Assembly (NCBI GenBank): GCA_040387195.1
Contig: JAZKEF010000011.1
Span: forward strand, 102,393 to 166,392
Direction: 5' to 3'
Length of the DNA stretch: 64,000 bases
Origin: Bacteroidota bacterium
GTDB taxonomy: Bacteria; Bacteroidota; Bacteroidia; UKL13-3
Shown: positions 6,977 to 37,918 of the stretch, one piece after another
Layout: each line of letters begins with the position of its first letter
Position numbering within the stretch: position 1 is the first letter of the stretch
Translations under genes and position numbers: made by a program
The notes under the pieces: model-generated
The model's input: only the letters and a program-made list of their open reading frames with translations
The model's database searches: none
Told to the model about the DNA's origin: nothing

Positions 6977-7588
6977 TTAAAATAAACCGTTTAATTCTGT
7001 TTCTATTTTGTTGATCACAAAACCTAAATCTTCAGGCTTGTCGGCAAAGTTTAAATTGTCTACATCAATAATCAGCAACCTGCTTTTGTAGGTTGAGATC
7101 CATGCTTCGTAGCGTTCGTTCAACCTTCGCAGGTAATCCAAACGGATGGAGTCTTCATACTCACGGCCACGTTTCTGGATCTGGTTAACCAAAGTTGGAA
7201 TCGAGGCGCGGAGGTATACAAGCAAATCCGGTGGTTTAACGGTGCTACTCAGGGAGTCAAACATTTTTTGGTAGGTTTCGAAATCGCGGGTGCTTAATAA
7301 ACCCATCGAGTGCAGGTTGGGAGCAAAGATGTGTGCATCTTCATAAATCGTTCTGTCCTGAACAATGCTCTTTTTTCCTTTTTGCATTTGCACCAAAGAG
7401 TTATAACGGCTATTGAGGAAATAAATCTGCAGGTTGAACGCCCAACGTTGCATGTCTTCATAGAAGTCGCTGATGTATGGGTTATCTTCTACATCTTCAT
7501 AATGTGGCTCATATTTATAATGACGCGCTAATAAAGTTGTGAGGGTGGTTTTTCCTGATCCGATGTTTCCGGCAATCGCTAAATGCAT
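6977..7588 (-). CDS. Deoxynucleoside kinase
   Basis: MHLAIAGNIGSGKTTLTTLLARHYKYEPHYEDVEDNPYISDFYEDMQRWAFNLQIYFL... P-loop. dNK/dCK family. Confidence 0.8.
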   Translation of the reverse strand: MHLAIAGNIGSGKTTLTTLLARHYKYEPHYEDVEDNPYISDFYEDMQRWAFNLQIYFLNSRYNSLVQMQKGKKSIVQDRTIYEDAHIFAPNLHSMGLLSTRDFETYQKMFDSLSSTVKPPDLLVYLRASIPTLVNQIQKRGREYEDSIRLDYLRRLNERYEAWISTYKSRLLIIDVDNLNFADKPEDLGFVINKIETELNGLF

Positions 7589-7772
7589 ACTTTTCTTTCT
7601 TTTCTAATCTACAATTTTAAGCTATTGCACCTGATTTCCTACCGTTGTGGAAATGTTTTAACGGATGGGTACTCAATGAGATCTCCGGCCGCATGAATAG
7701 GGGCTTTCATTGGGCTAAATCAACCGCTCACCATACTCCTGGAGTGGATATGGCAAGCGGTTGTTTGGTGGA

Positions 7773-8135
7773 TTAATGCTTGGCGTCCTTTTTACAGCAA
7801 GGATCCAGGTGCTCATATGCCTTAGGGTCGGCCGGTTTTCCATCGGCATCGTAACCGGCTTTGGTTACGGCCACTCTGATTCGCTCAGCTGAAGTCCTTT
7901 TTGTATAATAGGTAACGGTCAGGATTTTACTGTCTACATCCAGGCTCGATTCTTTTACACCTTTTTCATAGGATAGTGCTTTTTCAATGGTTTCCTTGCA
8001 CATGTCGCATACCGCTGATGTTTTAATTTTGATAGTTTCAATATCCTTTTTTACGGTGGAGGAGTCTTTACCGGTTTGTGCCCAAGCTCCCAGACTTAGT
8101 ACACAGGCCACAAGGGCGATGATTGTTTTTTTCAT
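7773..8135 (-). CDS. Heavy-metal-associated (HMA) domain lipoprotein
   Basis: Signal peptide. SAVCDMCKETIEKAL fits the HMA CxxC motif. C-terminal CCKKDAKH. Confidence 0.7.
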   Translation of the reverse strand: MKKTIIALVACVLSLGAWAQTGKDSSTVKKDIETIKIKTSAVCDMCKETIEKALSYEKGVKESSLDVDSKILTVTYYTKRTSAERIRVAVTKAGYDADGKPADPKAYEHLDPCCKKDAKH

Positions 8136-8326
8136 TTCGTTGTTAGGTATTAGGTATTAGTTATGTAGTTATTGTTTATTAGAACTGCTTTCGGCCTTAG
8201 TTGACTTCGGTAAACTCAGTCTGACAAAACCAAGGGATGTATTCATTCCGCAATCGATTCCGAGAACGATCGGATTGCGATTCGAATTTCCCATATCTCA
8301 AATCATCATTCACAATTCTCAAATTC

Positions 8327-10525
8327 TTATTTCACGCTCATTCTGAATCCCACATAAATCACTCTTCCCATTACCGGTCCCCAAATCATGGAGGCATCAA
8401 AATAGTTGCCAAACGGATTGTTGGAGTCGATGATCTGACTGGATTGCACGAAGTCGAAAATGTTTTCGGCACCAAGGTATACCTCAAACTTCTTGAACCC
8501 ACGGGTTACCTGCGTATTGAAAACATAATACGGTTTTGACGTTGTTTCCATCCTCAATCCATCCGGATTGGCCGAAGTGTTCGGAATTCTGTTTTGTCCG
8601 AACCATTTGGCTGTAGCATCAAATTTCCACTTATCAAATCGGGTGGCATATGCAATATTAAACAAGATACGGTCTTTTGCAATTAATGGTTTCTGTAATA
8701 ACGAACCACTGTATGTAGTGCGAACATCCTGCCATTTGTATGCCAGTCGGAGTTCAAAACGTTTGATGGGTTCATAGTTCAGTTCGGTTTGAAAACTGTT
8801 GGCATACGATTGTCCTTTGAGGTTATACAAATGAACTTCCTGAGCGTTGCGGTCGAGGTCGGTCACTACCTGGTTTTCAAAATCGGTACGGAAAGCATCC
8901 ACTACAAACGTTGCATTTTTGCGTGCTACCTTAAACTTGTGTGTAAACGAAATACCATAGTTCCATGATACTTCCGGTTTGAAGGCTTCCTCTACAACAA
9001 CTGTACGGTTGCTGGCCATAATAGCCGGTTGTTCGATGAACACATTTGCCACACGCATCCCTCGTCCGCCCGAAAAACGCAACACGGAAACAGGAGCAAG
9101 GTTGATTTTTAAATGCGCCCTTGGGTTCACAAATGTTCCATACAAATTATGGTAATCGCCACGGATACCCAACAGTAAGGAGAGTTTGTTCAAACGTTCA
9201 AAATTGTATTCCGCAAACACTCCCGGAACAGATTCCATCCTTTTAAAACCCGAATCATTGTAACGTTCGTTATAGTTATCATACATGTACGATACACCGG
9301 TTTTGATTTTATGGTCGCTGGTATTGATGATGGTTTGGTACAATAGATTGGCATGTACGGATTGTTCTTTTCCATTGTAATTTTTAAAACCATAAAAGGC
9401 ATCATGCTCATAAGTACGTGCATTGAGCATTAACCCCAGACTTTTATAAGGCCTTCCTACAAAACCAAATGCTGTTTTGCTGAAACCCTCAAGGTGTTTA
9501 GTTTCAATACCCACTCCGTATATGCTGCGACTGATATTATCAGCCTTGTTGCTGTAGTTCATTTGTCCGCCTGTGCGGTTATCATAGTTAGCAGTGATGC
9601 CGAAGCTTGCCATGAGTTTACCAACACTCTCGTATTTCCAGCGATTTATGGCACCCATTTGGTATCCGGTAGCAACGTCAATAAATCCATCGTTGTTAAA
9701 ATCATTTTTACGGGCAACGGTGCTGGCGTGGGTGAGGAGCAAGGAGCTCCATTGTTTGTTGAACCGGTGACCAAGATGCACATTGCTTTCAAAACGGCCC
9801 CAATCTCCGGCATACAGGTTTACATGCAAACGTTCAGCTTTTTCAGGTTTAAGCAATTCAATATTGATTTGCCCCGACATGCTTTCGTAGCCGCTCACCA
9901 CCGAACCAACTCCTTTGGTAATATCGATACTTTGCACCCATGTGCCGGGAATATGTGCAAGTCCATAGTTGGTGGAAAGCCCACGAATACCCGGTTGCAA
10001 TTCAAACAAGGTTTGTGTGTACGAACCATCCAGTCCCAACATTTTAATTTGTTTGGTGCCGGTGAGGGCATCGCTATATGTTACATCCACCGTTGCGTTG
10101 GCTTCAAAACTTTCACTCAGGTTGCAGCATGCTGCTTTTTTTAGTTCTTTTATTCCAAGGCTTTGACGGTTGAGGGGATCAATGGTTGAAAAGGTAGTGG
10201 CTTCTTTTGTTTCTACAATTTCAACGTCCTTCAACTTGGAAGAAGGTTTGAGGCGAATATGCAACTCCGTTTGTTCGGCAAAAGGAATTGTATCAGGGGT
10301 GTAGCCGATAAAGGAAACAACCAGCCTGGCCGGAACCTTAACGGGGTAAGCAATCTCGAAGGCTCCATTCACATCAGCACTGGTGCCCTGAGATGTATTA
10401 AGCCAGAACACGGTTGCTCCGGGAAGTGCCTGACGTGTATCGTCATCCATCACACTTCCTTTGATGGTCTGTGCTCTTGCCTGCATGCAGGTGAGCAGTG
10501 TAAACAGAATCAGGATATATTTCAT
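8327..10525 (-). CDS. TonB-dependent receptor (CarboxypepD_reg N-terminus, plug, beta-barrel)
   Basis: 732 aa. Signal peptide. TIKGSVMDDDTRQALPGATVFW N-terminal domain. Plug region. C-terminal aromatic residue. Confidence 0.85.
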   Translation of the reverse strand: MKYILILFTLLTCMQARAQTIKGSVMDDDTRQALPGATVFWLNTSQGTSADVNGAFEIAYPVKVPARLVVSFIGYTPDTIPFAEQTELHIRLKPSSKLKDVEIVETKEATTFSTIDPLNRQSLGIKELKKAACCNLSESFEANATVDVTYSDALTGTKQIKMLGLDGSYTQTLFELQPGIRGLSTNYGLAHIPGTWVQSIDITKGVGSVVSGYESMSGQINIELLKPEKAERLHVNLYAGDWGRFESNVHLGHRFNKQWSSLLLTHASTVARKNDFNNDGFIDVATGYQMGAINRWKYESVGKLMASFGITANYDNRTGGQMNYSNKADNISRSIYGVGIETKHLEGFSKTAFGFVGRPYKSLGLMLNARTYEHDAFYGFKNYNGKEQSVHANLLYQTIINTSDHKIKTGVSYMYDNYNERYNDSGFKRMESVPGVFAEYNFERLNKLSLLLGIRGDYHNLYGTFVNPRAHLKINLAPVSVLRFSGGRGMRVANVFIEQPAIMASNRTVVVEEAFKPEVSWNYGISFTHKFKVARKNATFVVDAFRTDFENQVVTDLDRNAQEVHLYNLKGQSYANSFQTELNYEPIKRFELRLAYKWQDVRTTYSGSLLQKPLIAKDRILFNIAYATRFDKWKFDATAKWFGQNRIPNTSANPDGLRMETTSKPYYVFNTQVTRGFKKFEVYLGAENIFDFVQSSQIIDSNNPFGNYFDASMIWGPVMGRVIYVGFRMSVK

Positions 10526-10552
10526 TTGAACTAAATTCTTTTTTATAAATGG

Positions 10553-11260
10553 TTAGAGTAAGTATAACATAACGGCACTCATTACAATCATCAATGTATC
10601 TTCTATAATGGTAACAGTGCTCATGGGTAAATTAAAAACAGCACCAAGACAAGCACACTGAATCTTACGTTTGTTTAATACACTTTGCAATACCCCAATT
10701 ACACTGATGCTCATCACAACAATGGTGGCAATGTTTGTATAGAAGGGCTTGAAAGAGGTAACAAATGCAATTCCCAACGCCAATTCCAAAAACGGATAAA
10801 CATATCCATATAACTTCACACGTTTGGCAACAACATCATACATCGCGTAACTTTCGGCAAATCCTTTTATGTCAAGTAACTTGAAAAAAGAGAAGGTGAG
10901 AAAAAATCCTGCCATGAATGTGTTCATAAAGTGCATCAGGTTGAATCCGGAGGTAAGTACCGAAACGCCTGTAATAAACATAAAAACCAACAGCAGGGGT
11001 TTATAAGTTGCAAGCCATGAAGGTGTTTTCGCAGTTGGTTCCATCTGTGCAGTTTCTTGTATTTGATATTTGCCTGTAGGTCCGCCCAATGCCGCTTGCA
11101 ACGTGTTTATTCCGATGTGTTTCGACATGGTTATGGTGGCAGTATTGGTGTGTTGAGAAACGGTAACCTCCTGTATATCCGACAAAGCAAGCAGTTTGCT
11201 TTTTACGGTTGCTTCGCAGCCCGAACAGGTCATTCCGGTTAGTTGATAGGTATGTGTCAT
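10553..11260 (-). CDS. N-terminal HMA domain fused to a four-TM membrane domain (CxC motif)
   Basis: MTHTYQLTGMTCSGCEATVKSKL is an HMA domain. Hydrophobic helices follow, with KIQCACLGAVFN. Confidence 0.6.
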   Translation of the reverse strand: MTHTYQLTGMTCSGCEATVKSKLLALSDIQEVTVSQHTNTATITMSKHIGINTLQAALGGPTGKYQIQETAQMEPTAKTPSWLATYKPLLLVFMFITGVSVLTSGFNLMHFMNTFMAGFFLTFSFFKLLDIKGFAESYAMYDVVAKRVKLYGYVYPFLELALGIAFVTSFKPFYTNIATIVVMSISVIGVLQSVLNKRKIQCACLGAVFNLPMSTVTIIEDTLMIVMSAVMLYLL

Positions 11261-11344
11261 GTTGTTATTGTTAAAATGTACCTACAAAGCACGCTACTGC
11301 AAGGCGATTGCATGTGATACAATTTTGGAATTGATTGGCATGAT

Positions 11345-11905
11345 TTACAGTTCTTCCAATGGTGTCCTTTTTTTCTCTTTCAATTGTTTAAAATGGGTTG
11401 GCCTGAAGCCCGTAACTTTTTGAAACTGTTTGCTCAGGTGCGATACACTGCTGTAGTTCATTTCCAATGCAATTTCACTCAGCGAACGTTCATCATACAT
11501 CAGCAATTCTTTTACCCGTTCAATTTTCTGGGCAATTACATACTGTTCAATGGTTGTTCCTTCCACCTCCGAAAAGAGGTTGCTCAGATATGTATAATCA
11601 TGCAGTAGTTGCTCACTCAAATATGTAGAAAGGTTGGTTTTGAGCGGAACATCCGAGTGATGAACAAGCTTGATGACAATGGTTTTGATCTTCTCAATAA
11701 GCAGACTTTTTTTATTGTCGATCAATACAAACCCGAATGATACCAATGCGGCATTCAGGTTCATTTTCTGAGCATCGCTGATATCATGTCTAAGCGTTAT
11801 TTCACCCAGATCCACGGATTCCGGTTCTATACCGAGTTTACTAAACTCATTGTGCACAATCATTTTGCAACGGTTGCACACCATATTTTTAATGTAAAGT
11901 TTCAT
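11345..11905 (-). CDS. AraC-type transcriptional regulator with an HMA-like N-terminal domain
   Basis: MKLYIKNMVCNRCKMIV (HMA-like). C-terminal SLSEIALEMNYSSVSHLSKQFQKVTGFRPTHFK is an AraC HTH. Confidence 0.7.
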   Translation of the reverse strand: MKLYIKNMVCNRCKMIVHNEFSKLGIEPESVDLGEITLRHDISDAQKMNLNAALVSFGFVLIDNKKSLLIEKIKTIVIKLVHHSDVPLKTNLSTYLSEQLLHDYTYLSNLFSEVEGTTIEQYVIAQKIERVKELLMYDERSLSEIALEMNYSSVSHLSKQFQKVTGFRPTHFKQLKEKKRTPLEEL

Positions 11906-11974
11906 GATGTGTATGTAATTTCTTCAATTCAAAAAGCAAAAAGCTTCTGTTACGGGTGTTAAACCCGGAAGAAA

Positions 11975-12406
11975 TCAAATACGGAAGTTTTGTGTGCGGC
12001 TCTGTTGATGCTGTTTTCGGCAGAGTAAAGGAGGAGCAGGTGCTTTTTCAGAAGGGGTATGTGTTAATGGAGCAATTACTTTTGGTGGTGCATACAATAC
12101 TAATGTAGCATTAAGGGTATGTCCGGTAGCTGTTTGGGGGGTGTATACCAAACTGCTTTCTTCCAATTGTAAAAAGGAATTATCAAAATCGCAGCAACCT
12201 TCAGGTTCCGGTAATTGTTTGGGAATAGGTTTGCAACAATCCTTTGTTTCGGCTTCGTGGTGGCAGGAAGCGTCATCATTAGTAATTGAAATACTCACAT
12301 GTCCGTCCTCCAGACATACCATCTTATATACAGGCACACCGGTATAACCAATGAGGATACTCAATGATAGGATACAGGCCGTAAATATGTTGGTTGCTTT
12401 TTTCAA
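11975..12406 (-). CDS. Secreted Cys/His-rich protein (possible metal-binding)
   Basis: Signal peptide. CHHEAETKDCCKPIPKQLPEPEGCCDF. First gene of the minus-strand metal cluster. Confidence 0.5.
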   Translation of the reverse strand: MKKATNIFTACILSLSILIGYTGVPVYKMVCLEDGHVSISITNDDASCHHEAETKDCCKPIPKQLPEPEGCCDFDNSFLQLEESSLVYTPQTATGHTLNATLVLYAPPKVIAPLTHTPSEKAPAPPLLCRKQHQQSRTQNFRI

Positions 12407-12522
12407 CGATTCAAATATAGGCGTTTGATTGATAAACAGCTATGATAAAAATTTCTTAATAAATAACGACTGTCAGATATTGTGACAACATGAGTGAGCG
12501 GTCTTCTGCAATGTTGTTGCCC

Positions 12523-12564
12523 GCAGATTTCGCAGATTCCGCTGATCTTTTATGCGAAATCTGC
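12523..12564. promoter_or_regulatory. Perfect 12-bp inverted repeat upstream of the metal operon
   Basis: gcagatttcgca-N18-tgcgaaatctgc. No T-run after it, so it is probably not a terminator. Confidence 0.35.
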
Positions 12565-12587
12565 TGGAATAATTAGCTCGCATATTT

Positions 12588-13172
12588 CTAGTAGATGGTC
12601 GAATGATAATCAACTTCAACACTCACCCAATGGCCGATTTCCTCAGTCATGATGGTAAACGTTTCACCTGTATTGAAGCGTATAAAATCCTTAGCATTCA
12701 ATATATAGTCTCTTTCCTGATACCTTAATATGGCATTTCCTTCCAACCAGTATACTCCATAAAAATCATCTTCAACAGTAATTGAAATATGCTGTTTGGC
12801 TTGTAATAATTGATGTTTGCATCTGCCCGTTACACCCTCAGCCATCATTAAGTTAAAGTCGGTTACCTTTCCTATGGCTGATGTTTCCCAACCACCATCA
12901 AACCTGTCGCTATCAAATGTATGAAGCGTTTTAGTATGATGATTTTGATGTGTTATCACCAATAAGCCATTCAAAATCATGAGGACTCGCTGAAAACCGG
13001 GAAGAGATGTGAACGTTGATGTTTCCGTTTCAACAGTGGCCGTGCTGATGCGGAACAAAAAATCCCGTCCGGCATAGGTTGAATCTTTGGGGTAAACGCA
13101 AAGCTGGGTGGTGGTGCCACCCGACCAGTTCGTGGTATGTTGCAATGCTTTTGGTAAAATGAACATGTGCAA
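12588..13172 (-). CDS. HutD family protein (Ves-like)
   Basis: 194 aa. The WSGGTTTQL motif and length fit HutD/Ves. Confidence 0.55.
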   Translation of the reverse strand: MHMFILPKALQHTTNWSGGTTTQLCVYPKDSTYAGRDFLFRISTATVETETSTFTSLPGFQRVLMILNGLLVITHQNHHTKTLHTFDSDRFDGGWETSAIGKVTDFNLMMAEGVTGRCKHQLLQAKQHISITVEDDFYGVYWLEGNAILRYQERDYILNAKDFIRFNTGETFTIMTEEIGHWVSVEVDYHSTIY

Positions 13173-13332
13173 GTTTACTTCGGAAATTGGTAAAAAGAAG
13201 TATATTGAACAGCATATGTGTATTACAACTGTGCCATATCACCTTAATGGGGGATTTACAACTTACTCTATGCTGTTACATTTGAGGTTGAAAATAGATT
13301 CAACATTTCTAACCTATTAAACAACAAAAATT

Positions 13333-14036: not shown

Positions 14037-15926
14037 ATGAAAAGAAGAGTTTATTTGCTGTTGTGTATTGCTATGTTTTCTTTAACTGCTTATGCAGGGA
14101 ATAGGGATGCGCAGGATACTGCAGCAGTAAATAAGCTTCTCCGACAATCTTCTTCTCTGCAACGCAGCAATGTAGATTCATGCTACCTTTTAGCTATACA
14201 AGCATTACAGCTATCTCAAAATGCTCAATATCAACAAGGTTTAGCCGGAGCCTATATACGCATGAGTGCAGTGATGATGATTAAAGGGAAGAGTGATTCA
14301 GCAATGAGTTATGCTCAAATGGCAATTGCTATAAGCGAGCACATAGAAGACCATCTTAGAACATCATATGCATATCTGTTAATGGGATACTTGTATCAGG
14401 ATAAAGGCATGCCGGATTCATCAATGGCAATGATTTATGAGTCGCAACGCTATGGTGAATTGGCAAAGGACTCCGGCAATCTTCTGAGGGTATTTGGTGT
14501 ATTGGGAAATTTTCATCTAGAGTATAAAGAGTATGATAAAGCATTGTTTTATTATCTAAAAACATATAAGCTTTCACTTAAGGTGAATAATATGTCCTCA
14601 GCTGCTGATGCCCTTATAGGAATTGGCAATGTGTATTATTTTAAAGGGAAGTTGCACACTGCACTACGGTATTATTTTAAGGTTGATTCGTTGAGCAGAC
14701 TTCTAAATGAAAAAACAGGGGTAGCTCAGAACTTAAATAATATAGCGTTGTGTTATGCCGATTTGAAACAATATGACAAGGCGCTGGACTATTACCTGAT
14801 GGCGTTGAAGGAATACCAGGCATTTGGTATGCGCAGTGAGGAGGCTAATTTATATTATAACCTTGCCTGTATGTATGAGGCGCTCCAACAGAGCAATGGT
14901 GTGGTTTTTTATGCGAACAAAGCTCTTATACTTGCTCAGGAGTTGGATGGCAGGGATAAAGTTGCTAAATGTTACCAATTATTGGCTAGAGCATACGGAC
15001 AAAAAGGAGATTACACCAAAGCATATCACTACCAGGAACAATATGCATTGCTGAATGATTCTTTGCTGAACACCGAAAAAGTACGCAGCATCAGTGAAAT
15101 GCAAACCAAGTATGAGACTGAACTCAAAAACCAGGAGATTGCTATTTTGCAGAGGGAGAATGATATCAGCAGGTTAAAAGCTTCTCGGAGTTTGGGAATG
15201 AATGTGGGGTTGGGGAGTGCGTTGCTCGGAATTGTGTTTGTTGCATTTGGTTTTTATACCCAAAGCAAGAAAAAAGAAAAGCTGAACACTGAGCTAACCT
15301 TTGAAAAGAAAAAGTCGGATGATTTGCTCCTGAACATTTTACCGGAAGAAGTAGCCAACGAACTCAAACAAAACGGAGAGGCCGTTGCCCGCCAGTACAA
15401 CAATGTAACGGTGTTGTTTACTGATTTTGTAAACTTTACCGGACTCAGCGAACAAATGAGTCCCACCGAACTGGTGCAGGAAATTCACCGGAACTTTACG
15501 GCTTTTGATGCCATCATTGAAAAGCATGGATTGGAAAAAATAAAGACTATCGGTGATGCATATTTAGCAGTGTGCGGATTGCCTAATGAAACCACAGACC
15601 ATGCACAACGTGTTGCCAGAGCTGCGTTGGATATCCGCGATTATATGGCTAATAACTCAGGTAAGTTTGAAGTGCGTATAGGTATTCATAGCGGTCCTGT
15701 GGTTGCCGGAATTGTAGGGGTTAAAAAATATGCTTACGACATTTGGGGTGATACGGTGAACACCGCAAGTCGCATGGAAAGCAGCAGTGAAGCCGGTAAA
15801 ATCAATATCAGTACATCAACTTATGAATTGATAAAAGCAGCATTCAATTGCACCTACCGCGGTAAAATAAACGCCAAACATAAAGGGGAAGTAGACATGT
15901 ATTTTATTGACCAATCGGTAACTTAA
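14037..15926 (+). CDS. Class III adenylate cyclase with periplasmic TPR sensor domain and one TM
   Basis: Signal peptide. TPR repeats, coiled coil and a TM helix. Cyclase domain FTDFVNFTG...KTIGDAYLAV...YDIWGDTVNTASRME...KGEVDMYF carries metal-binding Asp, the adenine-specifying Lys/Asp pair, and Asn, Arg and Lys catalytic residues. Confidence 0.85.
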   Translation: MKRRVYLLLCIAMFSLTAYAGNRDAQDTAAVNKLLRQSSSLQRSNVDSCYLLAIQALQLSQNAQYQQGLAGAYIRMSAVMMIKGKSDSAMSYAQMAIAISEHIEDHLRTSYAYLLMGYLYQDKGMPDSSMAMIYESQRYGELAKDSGNLLRVFGVLGNFHLEYKEYDKALFYYLKTYKLSLKVNNMSSAADALIGIGNVYYFKGKLHTALRYYFKVDSLSRLLNEKTGVAQNLNNIALCYADLKQYDKALDYYLMALKEYQAFGMRSEEANLYYNLACMYEALQQSNGVVFYANKALILAQELDGRDKVAKCYQLLARAYGQKGDYTKAYHYQEQYALLNDSLLNTEKVRSISEMQTKYETELKNQEIAILQRENDISRLKASRSLGMNVGLGSALLGIVFVAFGFYTQSKKKEKLNTELTFEKKKSDDLLLNILPEEVANELKQNGEAVARQYNNVTVLFTDFVNFTGLSEQMSPTELVQEIHRNFTAFDAIIEKHGLEKIKTIGDAYLAVCGLPNETTDHAQRVARAALDIRDYMANNSGKFEVRIGIHSGPVVAGIVGVKKYAYDIWGDTVNTASRMESSSEAGKINISTSTYELIKAAFNCTYRGKINAKHKGEVDMYFIDQSVT

Positions 15927-15945
15927 TGTATATTTAGCGCTACTC

Positions 15946-17937
15946 ATGAACAGCATATTTAAATCCACAATGACCATCCGAAAATACATACTTGTTGTTT
16001 TGTTGTGTAGCTTATGTTCGACCATAACACATGCTCAACGAGCAAAAGATACCTTAAGCGTTTCATTGACGATGGATAGTTTATCCTCCTCATTTAACCG
16101 CCTTTGGTGGAAGTATTCTCCGGTTGACGATTCGGCCGCAGTTGCCCCGGCATTTAATGACAGCAACTGGAAGTATATGCTTTCCGAAAGAATTGATTCG
16201 AACAACTTTAAAGGAATTGGTTGGTTCAGATTACACTTTACCATTGATTCAACTATGGTGCATAAACCCATTGCTTTCGGGATGCGGCAAAAAGGGGCAT
16301 CGGAAATCTATCTTGATGGCAAACTGGTAAAGCGCTACGGCAACATTAACGGAAAAGACAGCACGGAGCATTACGACCCGCAAAATGTACCGATTATTCT
16401 AATTATGGATTCGGTGGGTGAACATGTATTGGCAGTGAGATATGCCCGTTATGATTTTCCGCATGGGGAGTACGTAGGTTTTTCAATAGAGATGTCTTCG
16501 GCCGACAATACCATTGAACAAAAGCGGGTGAATGATGTGCTCATAACGGTATTTTTGATTGTGCTGTTTGTTGTATTCTTTACACTGAGCTTTTTACATT
16601 TATTGTTTTTCCTGTACTACAAACACAATGTATCCAATTTGTGGTTCAGTATCTTCATGTTTTGCATTGCCGGAATCTGGTTTGCCAACTTTTGGGCATT
16701 GTTTACCAGTGATCCCGATTTTAATGCGCGCTTAAAAGACGCGATGATGGTTTTTGCCTGCATAGCGTGTTTTTCTTTTTTGCTGTTCATTCATATCCTG
16801 TTTGCCAACCAAAAAAGATGGTGGATCATTATAGCGTTTTTGTTAAGCACCATTACCATGGTTGTGTATTTTTCAGATTCATTTGATGCAGGACCACTGA
16901 TGTTTGTGATGCTGGGTTATGTTGCTGTGTATAGTATTGTGTGTCTGTTAAGAGCCATTATCAAAAAGATAAAAGGTGCAGTGATTCTGGGAGTGGGGTT
17001 TGGCTTTTTCATGGTGTCCTTATTTTTTGTGGTGCTCCTGGCCTTTATTATGGAGGGGTTGGAATTTAATACAGGCAATAGCGTCCTCGGTGGAATATTG
17101 GTTGTCGTTCTATTGCTGGATATTGTATGTATTCCAATCACCATGTCGGTATATCAGGCGTGGATGTTTGCCAAATTAAATAAAGACCTTACCTCACAAC
17201 TGCAACAAGTAAAAGACCTTTCGGAAACCACCATCAAACAGGAGCAAGAGAAAAAACAGATTCTTGAAAACCAGAATGCACAATTGGAGTTGATGGTGGC
17301 CGACCGTACCGCACAACTTACACTCGAAAAACGCAAGAGTGATGAATTGCTCCTCAATATATTACCCGAAGGTGTTGCCGAAGAACTTAAAAATACCGGC
17401 AGTGCCGAGGCCAAACAATACAATAATGTAAGTGTACTGTTTAGCGATTTTGTGAATTTTACCGGCTTGAGTGAACGTATGACGCCAACCGAGCTGGTAA
17501 AGGAAATTCACCGTCATTTCACAGCATTTGATGCTATTATTGAAAAACACGGATTGGAAAAAATAAAAACGATCGGAGATGCATACATGGCAGTATGCGG
17601 TTTACCGGTTGAAACACCCGACCATGCCCAACGTGTGGTAAGGGCATCATTGGATATTTTGCACTACATGGAACAATCGGGAAGCAGGTTCAGTATTCGG
17701 ATGGGTGTGCATACCGGAGCTGTTGTTGCCGGAATTGTGGGTGTAAAAAAGTATGCGTATGATATTTGGGGTGATACGGTAAATACAGCAGCGCGTATGG
17801 AACAAAACAGTGAGTCTGGAAAAATCAATATCAGCGGTACTACTTATGAACTGGTGAAACGTGAATTTACCTGCACACACCGCGGAAAGATTCAGGCGAA
17901 GAATAAAGGGGAGATTGATATGTACTTTGTGAATTAA
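15946..17937 (+). CDS. Class III adenylate cyclase with a 7TMR-DISM sensor (DISMED2 extracellular domain plus 7 TM)
   Basis: N-terminal extracellular domain NWKYMLSERIDSNNFKGIGWFRLHFTIDS. Seven hydrophobic helices and a coiled coil. Cyclase domain as in 14037..15926. Confidence 0.8.
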   Translation: MNSIFKSTMTIRKYILVVLLCSLCSTITHAQRAKDTLSVSLTMDSLSSSFNRLWWKYSPVDDSAAVAPAFNDSNWKYMLSERIDSNNFKGIGWFRLHFTIDSTMVHKPIAFGMRQKGASEIYLDGKLVKRYGNINGKDSTEHYDPQNVPIILIMDSVGEHVLAVRYARYDFPHGEYVGFSIEMSSADNTIEQKRVNDVLITVFLIVLFVVFFTLSFLHLLFFLYYKHNVSNLWFSIFMFCIAGIWFANFWALFTSDPDFNARLKDAMMVFACIACFSFLLFIHILFANQKRWWIIIAFLLSTITMVVYFSDSFDAGPLMFVMLGYVAVYSIVCLLRAIIKKIKGAVILGVGFGFFMVSLFFVVLLAFIMEGLEFNTGNSVLGGILVVVLLLDIVCIPITMSVYQAWMFAKLNKDLTSQLQQVKDLSETTIKQEQEKKQILENQNAQLELMVADRTAQLTLEKRKSDELLLNILPEGVAEELKNTGSAEAKQYNNVSVLFSDFVNFTGLSERMTPTELVKEIHRHFTAFDAIIEKHGLEKIKTIGDAYMAVCGLPVETPDHAQRVVRASLDILHYMEQSGSRFSIRMGVHTGAVVAGIVGVKKYAYDIWGDTVNTAARMEQNSESGKINISGTTYELVKREFTCTHRGKIQAKNKGEIDMYFVN

Positions 17938-18039
17938 CATCAAAGTTTGACACACCGAGCAGGTTGTTGGGAAACACATTGTAATTTAAGTACCTTTAAA
18001 ATGTGTTCGGTAAAATATTGTTGAACAACGTATCTACTC

Positions 18040-20127
18040 ATGCGTAATTGGTTTTTATTTGGTCTGTATCTATCCATGACGGCATGGCTGTGTGTCGTAA
18101 ACGGATATGCGCAATCCTCTGCCAAGAATGTTAGACTCGATTCACTATTGAAAATAGATGTAAACGTCATTCCTGTTGATTCACTCAAAGCCGATCATTA
18201 TGATCGTATTGCAACAACTTACAGTTCCTCTTCTGATTACTTGCATGCATGCGAATATTGGCAAAAATCAATGGATATAGCCACATCCACAAATGATAAG
18301 CAACGGGCTGTTAAATATTTGGGAAGTCTGGGTCTCGAATACATTGCAATGGCTCACTACCCCAAGGCACTGGAGTGTTTTTTGAAGGCACTTGCATTTG
18401 CTGAACAAGCAAAAAACCGGAGTGCCATTACCAATTACCTCAACCACTTAGGCCGGGTTTACATGTTTTTGGGTGATTATCCCAAAGCGCTCGAATACTA
18501 TCAAAAAGCACTGGTCATCAGTGAAGCTGCAGGGTTAAAAAATCCGGTTGCAAAGCAGCTCCGTAATATTGGAAATACCTATAATAAAATGGGAGATTAT
18601 CCTAAAGCCATCGAATACCTGAAAAGGTCACAACTGCTTTTCGACAGCCTAGGTATCAAAGAAGGAGGAATGATTAGTTTGGGAATCATCGGTTCAGTGT
18701 ATCTTAATATAGCGGATTACGAGCGCTCGTTGGAATATTTACAAAAGGCACTGGTGATGAGTCGCCAGGCAAATAATAAACGCCAGGAAAGCATGAATCT
18801 GCTAAACATAGGCAAAGCTTACCGTGAAGCACCGGATCATATTCTGCTGAAAGCCGGAATACAGCCTGCTCAACGGAATGTAAGAGTATTAGAGTATTTA
18901 TACCTTGGCCAGCAAACAGCAAAAGAAATAAATGATGCAGGAACCGAAAAAATAGCATGGGAAGCCCTGAGTGATACCCATGAAAAGCAAGGTAATTATA
19001 TCAAAGCGTATCAGGCATACAAACAATACATTGTACTTCGTGATAGCATTGAAGGAAGTGAAACAAAAAATACCATTGCGATCAAAGAGATGCAGTTTGA
19101 TTTTGATAAACGGGAAACAAAACTATTGTTTGATCAGCAACTCACACACGAAAAACTGAGACAGCAGGAATTGCTCACACGCCAACAACAGCTTGATTTG
19201 GGCCTTAAACAACAACAATTAGTATTGAGTTTGCAAGATAAAAATCTGCAGCACCTGGTCTTTCTTAAAACACAAGCCGAGTTACAACAGGAGCGGATAG
19301 CAGGAGAGAACCAGCAGGCACTCTCGGCAAAAAAAGATGCAGAGCTTAAATTGTTAAGTAACGAAAAGGCCTTACAGGAAACAAAGCTTGAACTAACAAC
19401 CAACGAACTTACAGCAAAGGAAAATCAGCGAAATGGATTCATCATCGGTACGGTACTGTTGTTGTTTTTTGCAACTGCTGTTGTAATGGGATTAAAACGA
19501 ACTTCTGCAGAAAAGAAAAAGTCGGAAGCATTGTTGCTGAATATTTTACCAAGTGAAGTAGCCATGGAACTCAAACAAACGGGGGAAGCCATTGCCAAAC
19601 AATACAATCATGTAACGGTATTATTTACCGACTTTGTAAACTTCACGGGTATCAGCGAACAACTCTCCCCAACGGAATTGGTAGCAGAGGTTCATAAAAA
19701 CTTCACAGCCTTTGATGCCATTATCGAAAAACACGGATTGGAAAAAATAAAGACTATTGGCGATGCCTATCTGGCTGTATGTGGCTTACCGAATGAAACA
19801 GAAAATCATGCGCAACAGGTAGTGAGAGCGGCCTTGGATATTCAATTATTTATGAGTCAAAACGGAAATAAATTTCAGGTACGTATCGGCATCAATTCTG
19901 GAGCTGTTGTGGCCGGAATTGTGGGCGTTAAAAAATACGCATACGATATCTGGGGTGATACCGTAAACACGGCAAGCCGCATGGAAAGCTGCAGCGAAGC
20001 CGGTAAAATCAACATCAGTGGTGCTACTTATGAACTCATCAAACATGATTTTCGCTGTGAGCATCGAGGTAAAATAACCGCCAAAAACAAGGGAGCGGTT
20101 GATATGTATTTTGTGGAAGGGGTGTAG
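18040..20127 (+). CDS. Class III adenylate cyclase with TPR sensor, long coiled coil and one TM
   Basis: 695 aa. Same architecture as 14037..15926. Confidence 0.85.
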   Translation: MRNWFLFGLYLSMTAWLCVVNGYAQSSAKNVRLDSLLKIDVNVIPVDSLKADHYDRIATTYSSSSDYLHACEYWQKSMDIATSTNDKQRAVKYLGSLGLEYIAMAHYPKALECFLKALAFAEQAKNRSAITNYLNHLGRVYMFLGDYPKALEYYQKALVISEAAGLKNPVAKQLRNIGNTYNKMGDYPKAIEYLKRSQLLFDSLGIKEGGMISLGIIGSVYLNIADYERSLEYLQKALVMSRQANNKRQESMNLLNIGKAYREAPDHILLKAGIQPAQRNVRVLEYLYLGQQTAKEINDAGTEKIAWEALSDTHEKQGNYIKAYQAYKQYIVLRDSIEGSETKNTIAIKEMQFDFDKRETKLLFDQQLTHEKLRQQELLTRQQQLDLGLKQQQLVLSLQDKNLQHLVFLKTQAELQQERIAGENQQALSAKKDAELKLLSNEKALQETKLELTTNELTAKENQRNGFIIGTVLLLFFATAVVMGLKRTSAEKKKSEALLLNILPSEVAMELKQTGEAIAKQYNHVTVLFTDFVNFTGISEQLSPTELVAEVHKNFTAFDAIIEKHGLEKIKTIGDAYLAVCGLPNETENHAQQVVRAALDIQLFMSQNGNKFQVRIGINSGAVVAGIVGVKKYAYDIWGDTVNTASRMESCSEAGKINISGATYELIKHDFRCEHRGKITAKNKGAVDMYFVEGV

Positions 20128-20249
20128 TTGACGGTTCATAGTTCATAGTGGGAGGAAACAGTTTCTCTTCTTTGCGGTAGGCATCTGCTCATCCTCACCT
20201 ATTCCCCTTCCTCCCCCTAATTGGGTATTTTTCAACCAATACAGCATCC

Positions 20250-20257
20250 TACATTTG
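20250..20257 (+). promoter_or_regulatory. Candidate Bacteroidetes sigma-A -7 box TACATTTG (TAnnTTTG)
   Basis: Sits in the conserved CTACATTTGA motif upstream of the 20348 gene. The same motif occurs at 13277 and 29211. Confidence 0.35.
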
Positions 20258-20347
20258 ATTCGAAACAAATTGCACCCGACTAGATGTTCGATACATGTTA
20301 CTCGATAGCGGCATCATGCAATACTTGAAACTTTAAATCTACTCAAT

Positions 20348-21235
20348 ATGAAAACAACAGTACTTACTTTGATGATGGTTGCCTGTTTATGCTTCCATGC
20401 ACATGCCCAGATTCCCAACAACGGATTTGAAACCTGGACCAACAATGATCCCGATGGATGGGTAACCACCAATGGATTGATGCTGCTGGGCAATCCGCAG
20501 TCGGTGTTTAAATCAACGGATGTTCACAGCGGCAGTTTTGCGTGCGAAGTAAACACCGTAAACATTGCCACCAAACCTCCGGGAGTATATGTTCCTGATT
20601 TTACAGGATCTGTATTTACAGGTAAACAGGTGTTTGTTACTTCATACTTTGGTTTTCCGTATACCAACAAACCGGGGAAACTAAGCTTCTGGTATAAATA
20701 CAATGCACGCAATAATGATACGGCAAGTGTTCTTGCTTACACAACCAAATGGAATGCAACACTGCAAAAACGCGATACATTATCGATAGCGGTTAGCATG
20801 ATTAAAGATTCGGTAGGAGTGTATACTAAAGGAGAGGTGATGTTTTATGTAATGGACTCCTTGCAATCTCCCGATACTGCAGTGGTATTGTTTGCATCGA
20901 GCATGGTTACTGCAACACAGGCTGGAGCAAAATTGTTGCTGGATGATGTTGAGTTTATGGGAGGAAATGTTGGCTTAACGGAAGCGGGGGCACCTTCATT
21001 TAACATTTTCCCCAATCCGGTTAAAGATGGTTCTGTGCAGTTACAATTTGAAAAGCCAGAAGTATCGGTAATAATTAACGTGTTTGACATGCAGGGAAAA
21101 AATGTCCTGACACAATCAACAAATACAGCAACCGGTAAGATGGTGCTATCAACCTTACAATTTTTACCCGGATTATACATACTCTCTGTTCAAACAGAAC
21201 AAGGCACTGCTGTAAAACGATTGATTATTCAATAA
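20348..21235 (+). CDS. T9SS-secreted CBM-like protein
   Basis: Signal peptide. NGFETW start typical of CBM4/9-like beta-sandwich domains. C-terminal T9SS sorting domain PNPVKDGSVQLQFE...LPGLYILSVQTEQGTAVKRLIIQ. Confidence 0.65.
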   Translation: MKTTVLTLMMVACLCFHAHAQIPNNGFETWTNNDPDGWVTTNGLMLLGNPQSVFKSTDVHSGSFACEVNTVNIATKPPGVYVPDFTGSVFTGKQVFVTSYFGFPYTNKPGKLSFWYKYNARNNDTASVLAYTTKWNATLQKRDTLSIAVSMIKDSVGVYTKGEVMFYVMDSLQSPDTAVVLFASSMVTATQAGAKLLLDDVEFMGGNVGLTEAGAPSFNIFPNPVKDGSVQLQFEKPEVSVIINVFDMQGKNVLTQSTNTATGKMVLSTLQFLPGLYILSVQTEQGTAVKRLIIQ

Positions 21236-21253
21236 CCGGTCAGCATTACTCTG

Positions 21254-24214
21254 ATGATAACCGGTATTAGGAAAGCCATTTATGTACTAGGATGCATGGG
21301 AATATTGATGTGTATCAATACCCGGAAAAGTGCTGCTCAGGAATTCCGTTCTCAATCAAGAAAATATGTGGAAGAGGCCGATACATTGGATGGTGCAGAG
21401 GGAAATATAGAGGCCAGGTTCATTCGCGGTAATGTTAAATCGGCAACAACCAATGAAGTGTTGCCGGTCGCTATTATCAGACAAGCAGGAACAACCTATG
21501 CCGTAAATTCCAACCTTGATGGCGGATTTACCATGAAGCTGGATGTGCGCAAACCTGTTCAACTCATCTGTTATTATTTGGGTTTTTCGCCTGATACCAT
21601 TACTGTAACGGAACACACAACGTTCATCAACTTTCGGTTGCAGGAGACTTTTGCTTCCATTAAAGATGTAGTGGTTTCAGCATCGCGTAAAAATGAAAAG
21701 AGGTTTGAAAGCCCCGTTACAATTGAATCTTTGACTGCCCGCGACCTGCAGGTAAATCCAACATTGAATATGTACGAACGCATGACCAACATGGCCACTG
21801 TTGATGCAATTACTACCAGCGCCAATTTTAAAACACTCAACACGCGCGGATTTAATTCAAGTTATAATCAACGGTTTATTCAACGGTTGGATAATATGGA
21901 TTTATCCATGCCCGGTTTTAACCTTTCGCTGGGAGCTCTGAATGGTCCCGTTGATTTGGATGTGGAACGCATGGAGTTGATTCCGGGAGCCAATTCAGCA
22001 TTATATGGTCCAAATGCTATTAGCGGATTAATGAATACCACTTCCAAAAATCCGTTTCAATACCAGGGACTAAGTGTTGAATTCAAGTCCGGCATGAACC
22101 ATATTGGTGATCCTTCTATCAGTCCGCAACCGATGATGGATTTTAACCTCCGGTATGCAAAAGCTCTTAGCAGAAAAGTTGCCGGCAAGATAACCTTTGG
22201 ATATATGCAGGTTTCGGATTGGCGTGCTACCGACTACCGAGATGTATCAAACTATAATTATTCGAATAACCTTACAACATACGGATATGAAAAGGGACCT
22301 GGAAACCCAGGTTATAACGGACTAAACATAGGTGGAGATGAAGTGTCGGCAGTGTTTGATACCAGCATCAAAGCACCTATTACCAATCAACCGTTTCTTG
22401 AAAAGGGAGCATTGCGTGTTTCCCGTACAGGTTATCGGGAGGACCAGTTGTTTACGTATAAACCATATATGCTTAAAGGGGATGTTGGATTTTATTACCG
22501 GCCCAAAAAAGGAATGGAGTTATCCTGGACTTCCCGTTTCGGATTGGGCAGTAGTAATTTTCAAACAGACAACCGCACACAAATTACAGGTTATTTTTTG
22601 CAACAGCATAAAGTAGAGTTAAGCGGACGTAACTATGTGTTCAGGTCGTATGTAAGTGCCGAAGATATTGGAGAAGCCATCGATATCAGTCTTACTTCTG
22701 TTAACTTAAACCGAGCAGCCAAACCTGATGAAAACTGGTTTATGCAATACCTGTTTGTGTATTCCGGGCAATATAATAACCTGGCCATGGCGGCCGGACT
22801 CGATACCATTCAGGGCGGTAATGATGCGTTGGCGAGGAAATTTGCGGATGGTAACAACGAACATTTGTATCCGTATATCAACGCATTTGATACGGCAAGT
22901 GCAAAACTAATTTTAGGCAATTCCAGGTTCGAACCCGGCACAAAAGGTTTTGATTCGGTATTAAACATTATCAAAGGAAAAGCCTTTAAAGATGATGGAG
23001 GACGGATAAAAAGTACCTCAAAAACGTGGTATACGGAGTTTGTATACAATTTCCCCATTCGCAATAAATCTTGGTCGTTACAGTCAGGTATCAATTACCG
23101 CCTGTATGCTCCCAATACTTCCGGATCTGTATTTCCCGATACGAGCAGCCTTATTTATTTTAAAGAGGTGGGAGGGTTTGTGCAAGGAGGAAAAACATTT
23201 TTCAATAACAGGCTCAAACTTCAAGGGTCAACACGAGTGGATGCATTTCAGCAATTCGATCCGCGACTAAGTCCAAGGCTTTCTGTGGTATTGATGCTGG
23301 GTAAAAAGCAACAACACAGTGTAAGGATGTCGGCACAAATAGGCTTTCGAATGCCTCCGCTTATTGATATGTACTCATACATGAATGTAAAAGGTGCACT
23401 TACGTTTGGTGGTTTTTTACAGGATGCGTATAACCTCAATCTGGTGAGGCGTACACCTGATGGTGGGGAGTTTGTAAATATGTACACCCAAAGCTCGGTA
23501 AACGAATATTTGTATACCGGTGATTCAAACAGGCTGGTAAAGCCTGTGATAAAAGATATTGCTCCCGAAGAGTTGCGTACCATTGAGTTTGGCTGGAGAA
23601 GTTTTTTATTCAACAAACTTGAGTCTGATTTCAATGTGTATTTTAATTCCTTTCAAAACCTTATCAGTGCACAACAATATGTTGGGCCGATTAACCGCAC
23701 CGATACTATTAATCCAGCGTATGTTAAAAATCAGCAGCAAACCCAAGTTTACCGTAGAGCAGCAAATTCCAATTTCCCGGTAAGCTCATATGGAATAGCC
23801 ATCACTACCAATTATTATGTAAGCCATAAATGGTCATATTATGCTAATTACAATTTCAACGAACTCATTACATCTGTAGATTTTATCAGCAAAAATTTTG
23901 AAAAGGGATTCAATACGCCCAGGCATAAAGTAAACGTAGGAGTGAAGGGTACACGGTTTTACAGAAACTTTGGTATGGCCGCAAACCTGCGTTGGGTGGA
24001 CGCATTCTACTTTGCAGAGTACGACAGAATAGGTACTCTGGATGCATACTATTCAATTGACCTTGCCATCAATTACACCTTTATTAAACAAAAAGTGATG
24101 TTGAAACTAGGAGGGACAAATATTACCAATCAGGCTTATATACAAGCTTTGGGGTCGCCCACTGTTGGCGCATTGTACTATGTTTCTATCCTGTATGACG
24201 GATTGATCAAATAG
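21254..24214 (+). CDS. TonB-dependent receptor (CarboxypepD_reg, plug, barrel)
   Basis: 986 aa. N-terminal regulatory-like domain. Plug with RKNEKRFESPVTIESLTARDLQ. Large beta-barrel. No adjacent SusD-like gene. Confidence 0.8.
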   Translation: MITGIRKAIYVLGCMGILMCINTRKSAAQEFRSQSRKYVEEADTLDGAEGNIEARFIRGNVKSATTNEVLPVAIIRQAGTTYAVNSNLDGGFTMKLDVRKPVQLICYYLGFSPDTITVTEHTTFINFRLQETFASIKDVVVSASRKNEKRFESPVTIESLTARDLQVNPTLNMYERMTNMATVDAITTSANFKTLNTRGFNSSYNQRFIQRLDNMDLSMPGFNLSLGALNGPVDLDVERMELIPGANSALYGPNAISGLMNTTSKNPFQYQGLSVEFKSGMNHIGDPSISPQPMMDFNLRYAKALSRKVAGKITFGYMQVSDWRATDYRDVSNYNYSNNLTTYGYEKGPGNPGYNGLNIGGDEVSAVFDTSIKAPITNQPFLEKGALRVSRTGYREDQLFTYKPYMLKGDVGFYYRPKKGMELSWTSRFGLGSSNFQTDNRTQITGYFLQQHKVELSGRNYVFRSYVSAEDIGEAIDISLTSVNLNRAAKPDENWFMQYLFVYSGQYNNLAMAAGLDTIQGGNDALARKFADGNNEHLYPYINAFDTASAKLILGNSRFEPGTKGFDSVLNIIKGKAFKDDGGRIKSTSKTWYTEFVYNFPIRNKSWSLQSGINYRLYAPNTSGSVFPDTSSLIYFKEVGGFVQGGKTFFNNRLKLQGSTRVDAFQQFDPRLSPRLSVVLMLGKKQQHSVRMSAQIGFRMPPLIDMYSYMNVKGALTFGGFLQDAYNLNLVRRTPDGGEFVNMYTQSSVNEYLYTGDSNRLVKPVIKDIAPEELRTIEFGWRSFLFNKLESDFNVYFNSFQNLISAQQYVGPINRTDTINPAYVKNQQQTQVYRRAANSNFPVSSYGIAITTNYYVSHKWSYYANYNFNELITSVDFISKNFEKGFNTPRHKVNVGVKGTRFYRNFGMAANLRWVDAFYFAEYDRIGTLDAYYSIDLAINYTFIKQKVMLKLGGTNITNQAYIQALGSPTVGALYYVSILYDGLIK

Positions 24215-24241
24215 TCCATTTCTGATTTTAAATGTTTATTA

Positions 24242-27139: not shown

Positions 27140-27176
27140 TGGAATCTAAAAATAAAGAATAAGAAGGTAGTAGCCT

Positions 27177-37797: not shown

Positions 37798-37875
37798 TAA
37801 ATGAGTAAATGTGCAGATGAGTATATGTGCAGATGAAGGAGTTAAGAAATAGGAGATGAAGAAGAGGGCAGGAAA

Positions 37876-37918
37876 GGCGCCTGAGCTTCCGCAAAGCGGA
37901 ATGGGTGAAGGCGGCAGT
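37876..37918. repeat. Structured roughly 43-nt intergenic element, copy A (copy B at 53086..53125)
   Basis: ggcgcctgagcttccgcaaagcggaatgggtgaaggcggcag versus gctgcctgagcttcacgaagtgaatggccgaaggcagcgg. The inner hairpin is kept by compensatory changes. Confidence 0.5.

Follow-up and report, generated by a model that had tools for sequence, protein, structure and literature searches.

A five-gene Bacteroidota cluster joins two conserved modules and is a candidate locus for Cu(I) handling

Five head-to-tail open reading frames (ORFs) on the minus strand of a 64-kb stretch of Bacteroidota DNA (contig JAZKEF010000011.1; the whole stretch is called the window here) encode a small Cys-rich protein (P1), a predicted AraC/XylS-type regulator with an N-terminal heavy-metal-associated (HMA) fold (P2), an HMA domain fused to a MauE membrane domain (P3), a putative TonB-dependent receptor (P4) and a predicted exported HMA protein (P5). 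We rate the chance that this cluster is a Cu(I) handling locus, combining two modules repeatedly found together in Bacteroidota, at somewhat better than even. Comparison of gene orders indicates that two modules, each conserved independently of the other, have been fused in this lineage, and that the locus is not one ancestral five-gene operon; module A consists of P1, P4 and P5, and module B of P2 and P3. A sequence-only reading of the window had proposed a single metal-handling cassette of five consecutive minus-strand genes. The genes are where it placed them, and GenBank annotates the same five as the consecutive proteins MES2559492-96, encoded on a 331-kb contig in the metagenome-assembled genome of an uncultured Bacteroidota bacterium (HMA domain protein, TonB-dependent receptor, MauE/DoxX family protein, AraC family regulator and hypothetical protein); the gene families are also co-conserved, the opposite of which it had named as grounds for refutation, although as two separate modules. 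A HutD-like gene and a deoxynucleoside kinase gene flank the cluster (Table 1), whose intergenic gaps measure 69 bp (P1-P2), 84 bp (P2-P3), 27 bp (P3-P4) and 191 bp (P4-P5).

The case for two modules was built from the neighbourhoods of P3 and P4 homologues. On the P3 side we used 80 genome loci from Chitinophagales, Sphingobacteriales, Flavobacteriales, Cytophagales and Saprospiraceae, and on the P4 side six homologue loci (47-77% identity) together with a metagenome scan of 80 loci at 40-48% identity, for which presence counts were restricted to the 45 loci with enough flank on both sides. Co-conservation across these approximately 170 loci argues that the gene grouping is beyond chance. All six P4 homologues follow the order small Cys protein, receptor, HMA protein; neither P2 nor P3 is found at any of these six loci, and the surroundings are housekeeping genes such as those for deoxynucleoside kinase and tRNA synthetase. 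At the metagenome loci the small protein lies upstream of the receptor in 38 of 45 cases and an HMA protein adjoins the receptor in 34 (24 downstream, 10 upstream), both being present together in 29. For module B, a P2-type gene occurs in 73 of the 80 HMA-MauE genome loci, mostly as the gene immediately before the P3-type one, and the two are direct neighbours in about 72 of 81 loci; about 74 of 80 genomes have the pair but not the receptor. P5-type proteins were seen at 7 of the 80 HMA-MauE loci. Eleven of the 80 metagenome receptor loci join genes of module B or copper genes (AraC-HMA in 5, HMA-MauE in 4, Cu-ATPase in 3, DUF3347 in 3, multicopper oxidase in 1). The order P1-P2-P3-P4-P5 is common to the window and its closest relatives only and looks like the result of an insertion of module B between P1 and P4. 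Another arrangement, P1-P4-P2-(multicopper oxidase)-P5-DUF3347-P3, is found in Emticicia and Arcicella, where a single co-directional cluster contains all five families. That independent rearrangements keep the same families together argues for a shared function of the two modules.

The company kept by these genes at other loci points to copper. Around HMA-MauE genes we found DUF3347/HMBD/HMA proteins at 58 of the 80 loci, canonical HYC_CC_PP proteins at 46, CopA-like multicopper oxidases at 39 and Cu-type P1B-ATPases (TIGR01511, 592 bits against a cut-off of 397) at 18, and further recurrent neighbours include Cus-like resistance-nodulation-division (RND) components, Csp1-like four-helix-bundle proteins and Met-rich proteins. 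This set has the make-up of copper resistance islands. On the receptor side, one locus (L089) has a multicopper oxidase of the type IX secretion system (T9SS) inside module A, before the HMA gene. The sequence-only reading had held that the metal could not be told from sequence; the neighbours of both modules at other loci do allow copper to be inferred. Because those neighbours are multicopper oxidases, Cu P1B-ATPases, a Cus-like RND pump and a Csp-like storage protein, the metal is most probably copper. A thiolate theme runs through the proteins themselves, with CC in the plug of P4, CxxC and CC in P5, C/CC/CC in P1, and CxxC and CxC in P3.

A candidate operator for P2 was located between P2 and P3. 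The P2-P3 intergenic regions of 37 loci, the window and 36 others, share a 30-nt element with the consensus CTTACAAATCATATCCAAAATTCCACAACA. When a weight matrix built without the window sequence was run over the window, with 20 shuffles as background, a single copy was found in the 64 kb, with a score of 30.3 against a shuffle maximum of 17.3. Among the box matches in the first 82 loci fetched (L001-L083), 36 of 45 precede the MauE gene and the others precede a small gene just ahead of it, such as one for a Csp-like protein; at locus L104 a strong copy lies directly upstream of a Cu P1B-ATPase gene. In the aligned intergenic regions, about 20 nt separate the end of the box from a downstream -7 box of the TAnnTTTG type, without a -33 element, a layout that would suit an activator-dependent promoter, and in the window GTGCTTTG may act as the -7 element. 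A scan of positions 7000-13300 with promoter and terminator consensus sequences returned counts at or below chance, the consensus being uninformative for Bacteroidota. The P3-P4 gap contains no hairpin or terminator, the P4-P5 gap has a hairpin of moderate strength, and a strong hairpin predicted by RNAfold follows the P5 stop codon; the latter is not flagged by the consensus terminator scan, as no T-run follows it, and is likely the end of a transcription unit. The likely transcription units are P1, P2 and P3-P4(-P5), of which the last alone carries the box.

The best-surviving alternative is that the two modules are functionally unrelated here, P2 and P3 being a copper-stress defence pair inserted by chance, and P1, P4 and P5 a separately regulated housekeeping uptake system, possibly for another substrate. 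Such an arrangement would agree with the separate lives that the modules lead elsewhere, most receptor loci lying among housekeeping genes without P2 or P3 and most P2/P3 loci having no receptor, and also with a box before P3 only and with the hairpin and the long gap between P4 and P5. We nevertheless consider it rather unlikely, as the five families also lie together, in another order, in Cytophagales and on several metagenome contigs, both contexts share HYC_CC_PP and HMA proteins, and P3 and P4 are separated by 27 bp without a terminator.

A second alternative accepts a common function and changes the metal. Hg(II), Ag(I), Au(I), Cd(II) or Zn(II) might be handled instead of Cu(I), for example through mer-like import with P5 in the place of MerP and P3 in that of MerT. 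P5 and P3 do have sub-threshold matches to MerP, MerTP and MerT/CopZ models, their structural neighbours include MerP, NmerA and GolB, and vicinal CC pairs are typical of MerT/MerC. The recurrent neighbours are, however, copper-specific (multicopper oxidase, TIGR01511 Cu-ATPase, Csp-like proteins), and neither MerA nor an organomercurial lyase was found near the cluster in the window or among the gene clusters that recur in at least 3 of the 80 genome loci. P3 moreover has the form GMTCxxC that is typical of Cu(I) sites, DCxxC being typical of Zn/Cd sites. We therefore regard another thiophilic metal as improbable. A mer operon as such was rejected on scores of 31.7 for MerP (cut-off 92.55) and 34.9 for MerTP (cut-off 180) and on the lack of a MerA-like recurrent neighbour.

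If the locus handles Cu(I), P2 is the component that would turn the metal into a transcriptional signal. Its DNA-binding part matches HTH_18 of Pfam (56.4 bits against a cut-off of 33.6), and the top Foldseek matches of its structural model are AraC-family DNA-binding domains. The N-terminal MKLYIKNMVCNRC is invariant, and throughout a family of more than 8000 clusters the N-terminus reads MKLxxKNMVCxRC; this conservation fixes the start at the 186-aa version and rules out the 179-aa start used in some assemblies. Pfam gave no HMA match for the N-domain. In the AlphaFold2 model (predicted local distance difference test, pLDDT, 85), residues 1-62 adopt the HMA fold beta-alpha-beta-beta-alpha-beta, with strands at 2-6, 28-32 and 35-38, a short bridge at 60-61 and helices at 11-23 and 44-55, and the CxxC cysteines C10 and C13 sit at the start of helix 1, at its junction with the preceding loop. 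Foldseek matched the model to the HMA proteins TTHA1718, GolB and Atx1 (prob 0.95, template-modelling score 0.64-0.70), below the AraC DNA-binding domains, and the family profile matches HMA chains in the PDB, among them 2kyz (E=8.5e-4). An AraC regulator with an HMA-like N-terminus (NMVCNRC), as the sequence-only reading had described it, is borne out by these three lines, and the model indicates that the N-domain is a true HMA-fold domain. In Pedobacter loci (L011-L067), a gene for a LigB-type extradiol dioxygenase-like protein (about 274 aa) and a YceI-like gene lie between the AraC-HMA and HMA-MauE genes, with genes for a 178-aa HMA protein and a MetA-pathway-type outer-membrane channel upstream.

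P3 combines an HMA domain (PF00403, residues 5-59, GMTCSGC; 39.5 bits against a cut-off of 24.8) with a MauE domain (PF07291, residues 108-233; 54.6 bits against 27), and both are present in all 8000 scored matches of what is a very large family. Conserved stretches include MTHTYxxxGMTCxxCE and KIQCACLGAVFNLPMSTVTIIED. The CxC motif C202-A-C204 is invariant in the family alignment, and so are nine Met residues, E159, E220 and D221, located in or beside the helices of the membrane domain. The AlphaFold2 model (pLDDT 81) comprises the HMA domain, a disordered linker, helices at 82-104, 108-129, 149-168, 172-195 and 213-234, and a short amphipathic stretch at 131-147. A cytoplasmic HMA domain fused to a membrane domain with a CxC had been recognized before; the four transmembrane helices then assigned to it become five in the model, one linker helix plus a four-helix MauE domain. 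As K197-R198-K199 precedes the CxC, the motif would lie at the cytoplasmic face if the N-terminus is cytoplasmic. It has to be asked whether P3 is instead a MauE/DoxX-like thiol-disulfide redox conduit that maintains or repairs the reduced state of the exposed Cys pairs in P1, P4 and P5 under copper-catalysed oxidative stress, in which case the cluster would serve the upkeep of cysteines and not a passage of metal through P3; membership in Pfam MauE fits this, every extracytoplasmic partner has essential-looking Cys pairs, MauE acts with the thioredoxin-like MauD in the disulfide-dependent maturation of methylamine dehydrogenase, and copper causes periplasmic disulfide mis-pairing, but the single CxC differs from the two separated Cys of CcdA/DsbD-type conduits, the fusion is to an HMA domain and not to a thioredoxin fold, the nine invariant Met suggest Cu(I) coordination, and no thioredoxin-like partner gene is nearby, so that we hold this account to be improbable.

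P4 had been called a TonB-dependent receptor, and the Plug and TonB_dep_Rec_b-barrel matches precomputed for its full-length homologues (47-60% identity) speak for the call, P4 itself being a probable divergent member. P4 has a signal peptide (ARA-Q cleavage site), an N-terminal CarboxypepD_reg domain, which is its sole Pfam domain over the cut-off, and a weak barrel-type similarity to Cir/CfrA. The mature protein contains two Cys only, the vicinal C133-C134 in KAACCNLSESF, and all 25 of the family members compared keep this pair; by Pfam coordinates it would lie at about position 22 of the Plug model, in the segment just after the TonB-box region. Identity with either described copper receptor was ruled out. 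For OprC/NosA, the CxxxM-HxM site is absent and no OprC chain appeared in a PDB sequence search at E<=1; for CrtA, the HMA and HYC_CC_PP partners and the invariant CC disagree, and no CrtA chain appeared in the PDB search at E<=1. At locus L089 three extra genes (7284-10253) stand between the receptor and HMA genes, among them those for the T9SS-secreted multicopper oxidase, which has two domains, and for a small T9SS-tailed protein; the oxidase would be a cell-surface copper oxidase beside a putative copper receptor.

The two remaining members of module A are small proteins with several cysteines. P5 carries an HMA domain (PF00403, 36.8 bits against a cut-off of 24.8; SAVCDMC, CxxC cysteines C43 and C46) and, throughout its family, an invariant C-terminal CC (C113-C114, in CCKKD). 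It had been taken for a periplasmic HMA lipoprotein (CDMC). The HMA domain and the export stand, whereas lipidation does not: the family site is AxA-Q, of the signal-peptidase-I type, and the LVAC Cys at residue 11 is confined to the window lineage and its closest relatives. The other nine homologues have no Cys at that position (in the one from L077 a Cys occurs further on) and most show an AxA-Q-type site, and P5 is predicted to be a Sec-exported soluble periplasmic protein.

P1 contains the CHHEAETKDCCKP...GCCDF quoted in the sequence-only reading and is a real gene, as shown by its conservation in two syntenic relatives (orthologues at 74-83% identity) and by the 47 representative clusters that its family forms in a library of 1.84 billion proteins; P1-like proteins with 35-43% identity are encoded at the matching position upstream of more distant receptor genes. 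The description of P1 as Cys/His-rich holds for the five Cys, which are conserved, and not for the His residues, which the family alignment shows to vary. Invariant are C31, within the juxtamembrane GYTGVPVYKMVC (encoded at window positions 12313-12348) right after the hydrophobic N-terminus, C57-C58, C71-C72 and P125-P126, and the protein is predicted to be N-terminally anchored or exported. Of the motifs that name the NCBIfam family HYC_CC_PP (NF047658), CC and PP are present and the HYC position reads MVC. This model is matched at E<=0.01 by 27 of 45 P1-family representatives, one of them over the cut-off at 28.6 bits, and when 401 ORFs were ranked with a hidden Markov model made from the canonical HYC_CC_PP neighbours, P1 and its two orthologues came first. 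The best description of P1 is as a divergent sister branch of HYC_CC_PP. No Pfam match was found for P1-like proteins, but the Pfam copy used apparently lacks PF26622 (DUF8199), a family to which precomputed tables assign two of these proteins. Several family members weakly match the Cox11/CtaG model PRK05089 (E 1e-3 to 3e-2, profile positions 15-55 of 189 alone), a short likeness of anchor and juxtamembrane Cys that may serve as a lead only; P1 as a Cox11/CtaG protein was ruled out, the immunoglobulin-like soluble domain and the CFCF copper site being unmatched. Stretches matching P1 also occur as repeats in two large proteins, 13 of them in P0387 (2598 aa; P1 residues 13-47) and 7 in P0399 (488 aa; residues 4-35). 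These repeats of the anchor/juxtamembrane motif may be low-complexity or repeated hydrophobic segments.

Domain architectures, conserved cysteines, co-conservation of the genes, the box and the copper-gene neighbourhoods are observed; from them we propose the following scheme for Cu(I) handling, in which we infer the identity of the metal, the topology, each transfer step, the sign of regulation (activation or repression) and the net purpose (uptake or defence). P4, energized by TonB, would bring copper into the periplasm, with the CC of its plug as a likely ligand or hand-off site. P5, with its CxxC and terminal CC, would take over Cu(I) there, and the anchored P1, with its C, CC and CC, may be a third thiolate carrier that receives Cu(I) in the periplasm. 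Met, Cys and acidic residues of P3 could then conduct or relay Cu(I) to the CxC, at the cytoplasmic face, and from there to the tethered HMA domain of P3 itself, from which the metal would be passed to the HMA domain of P2 by HMA-to-HMA ligand exchange. Once loaded with metal, P2 would act at the 30-nt box, which abuts the -33 region of the P3 promoter, and in this genome the promoter would drive P3 and P4, and probably P5. The near-obligate adjacency of P2 and P3, whatever their neighbours, is easier to reconcile with a sensor and its signal-delivering partner than with a bulk transporter. The box at L104 and the resistance-island context suggest that P2 activates at copper excess. The sequence-only reading had imagined a metal trafficking route through CxxC/HMA modules placed around a receptor; that core idea holds, without the single operon and without the lipidation of P5. 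The stronger claim, that the locus is a complete, previously undescribed thiolate relay for Cu(I) from the cell exterior to a transcription factor and that P2 is the missing cytoplasmic copper sensor of Bacteroidota, we put forward tentatively, as an idea with the chances against it.

Several observations weigh against this interpretation. The receptor and module B are rarely found together, at 6 of 80 loci when counted from the MauE side and at 5-9 of 80 from the receptor side. No further copy of the box was found before P1, P2 or P5, in the remainder of the window or in receptor loci without MauE, and because it occurs upstream of P3 only, a five-gene regulon could not be shown. If P2 activates efflux at high copper, an importer driven by the same promoter would be paradoxical, a difficulty that an internal P4 promoter, activation by the apo-form, or a sensing rather than nutritional role would resolve. 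Two of the family assignments fall short of their thresholds, P1 scoring 18.2 bits (E=0.0026) against the curated HYC_CC_PP cut-off of 28 bits, and the P4 Plug (residues 119-218) 16.5 bits (E=0.013) against 23.9. In P3, the CxC loop is a low-confidence region of the model, Foldseek found no structural analogue of the membrane domain in the PDB (the HMA domain was matched alone), and the MauE family is otherwise tied to disulfide chemistry rather than transport. Binding at HMA/CxxC and CC sites is not confined to copper, since Hg, Ag, Au, Cd and Zn are bound there as well. Within the literature searched, no study of HYC_CC_PP, DUF3347, HMA-MauE or HMA-AraC proteins was found.

To our knowledge, hardly anything has been described of how Bacteroidota sense and import copper. 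The locus is a variant of known copper trafficking and sensing systems, built from annotated families without characterization in the literature searched. The TonB-dependent copper transporters described so far make up only two families, both of them in Proteobacteria (PMC8610252, PMC12914433). OprC/NosA of Pseudomonas are TonB-dependent receptors proposed to import ionic copper by sulfur ligands at a CxxxM-HxM site (PMC8610252); P4 is similarly an outer-membrane TonB-dependent receptor with a copper-linked gene context, and differs by its vicinal plug CC, its Bacteroidota-type CarboxypepD_reg domain and its conserved HMA and HYC_CC_PP partners. CrtA, found in beta/gamma-Proteobacteria, has no conserved Cys/Met, is accompanied by PepSY_TM partners and the CruR upstream ORF, and imports chelated copper (PMC12914433). 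Copper uptake is assigned to CrtA largely on the strength of regulation and of the genes conserved around it, a basis similar to that used here for P4, but P4 belongs to Bacteroidota, has an invariant CC and keeps HMA and HYC_CC_PP partners.

Like the CueR/MerR- and CopY/CsoR-type sensors, P2 would be a one-component cytoplasmic regulator with a thiolate site, encoded beside the genes it controls, and the box ahead of the Cu-ATPase at L104 parallels CueR sites. In contrast to these sensors, its HMA domain is fused to an AraC/XylS DNA-binding domain, of another fold and family. A 2024 survey of the genome of the flavobacterium Bizionia found no convincing copper sensor of the MerR, CopY or ArsR type and did not consider AraC proteins (PMC11213822). 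In logic, the closest analogy to the cluster is the mer chain MerP -> MerT -> NmerA, with a periplasmic HMA protein, an inner-membrane Cys pair and a cytoplasmic HMA domain; the cluster departs from it in having no MerA, a P3 of the MauE family rather than MerT, and an added outer-membrane receptor. P1-family proteins resemble Cox11/CtaG in an N-terminal anchor followed by a VP-x-Y-x-x-x-C segment, and P1 is unlike Cox11/CtaG in its two CC pairs and PP motif, the match being partly compositional. The pairing of a periplasmic copper-binding protein with an inner-membrane protein in copper-resistance loci, with inward movement of copper for sensing or enzyme loading, recalls CopC/CopD (PcoC/PcoD), although no sequence or fold relationship to P5 and P3 was detected.

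We offer the HMA-AraC regulator family, with its 30-nt box, as a candidate copper sensor of Bacteroidota, and the widespread receptor/HMA/HYC_CC_PP module, organized around vicinal Cys pairs, as a candidate system for its copper receptor; the HMA-MauE partner would, if this is true, give the MauE fold a metal-related role. Among cultivable species, Emticicia aquatilis and Arcicella aurantiaca carry both modules, whereas Pedobacter spp., Flavobacterium terrae and Riemerella anatipestifer, a pathogen of ducks, carry module B alone. Flavobacterial disease of fish is treated with copper compounds, which gives the regulator practical relevance.

Table 1. Positions in the window of the cluster genes, of associated elements and of other features
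Feature	Position	Strand	Length	Accession	Description
P1	11975-12406	minus	143 aa	MES2559496	small Cys-rich protein, putative divergent HYC_CC_PP branch
P2	11345-11905	minus	186 aa		AraC/XylS-type regulator with predicted N-terminal HMA-fold domain
P3	10553-11260	minus	235 aa		HMA domain fused to MauE membrane domain
P4	8327-10525	minus	732 aa		putative TonB-dependent receptor with CarboxypepD_reg N-terminal domain
P5	7773-8135	minus	120 aa		predicted exported soluble HMA protein
30-nt box CATGCCAATCAATTCCAAAATTGTATCACA	11313-11342	minus			between P2 and P3; candidate P2 operator
-7-like element GTGCTTTG	11285-11292	minus			Bacteroidota consensus TAnnTTTG; 20 nt downstream of box, 24 nt upstream of P3 start codon
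Strong hairpin	7721-7763	minus			RNAfold; just after P5 stop codon
HutD-like gene	12588-13172				flanks the cluster
Deoxynucleoside kinase gene	6977-7588				flanks the cluster
Cyclase gene	14037-15926	plus			class III adenylate/guanylate cyclase
Cyclase gene	15946-17937	plus			class III adenylate/guanylate cyclase
Cyclase gene	18040-20127	plus			class III adenylate/guanylate cyclase
T9SS cargo gene	20348-21235	plus			among cyclase genes
Second TonB-dependent receptor gene	21254-24214	plus			CarboxypepD_reg type; among cyclase genes
Cyclase gene	24242-27139	plus			class III adenylate/guanylate cyclase
Cyclase gene	27177-29090	plus			class III adenylate/guanylate cyclase

Two further features of the window lie outside the cluster. 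The five class III adenylate/guanylate cyclase genes at 14037-29090 on the plus strand are paralogous, with differing sensor N-termini (TPR, seven-transmembrane and Y_Y_Y/propeller), and the array is also present in the relative L082. On the minus strand, positions 40848-46413 encode a pair of large proteins sorted by the T9SS (Por_Secre_tail), of which one has SprB repeats, downstream of topoisomerase IV-like genes at 35926-40709.

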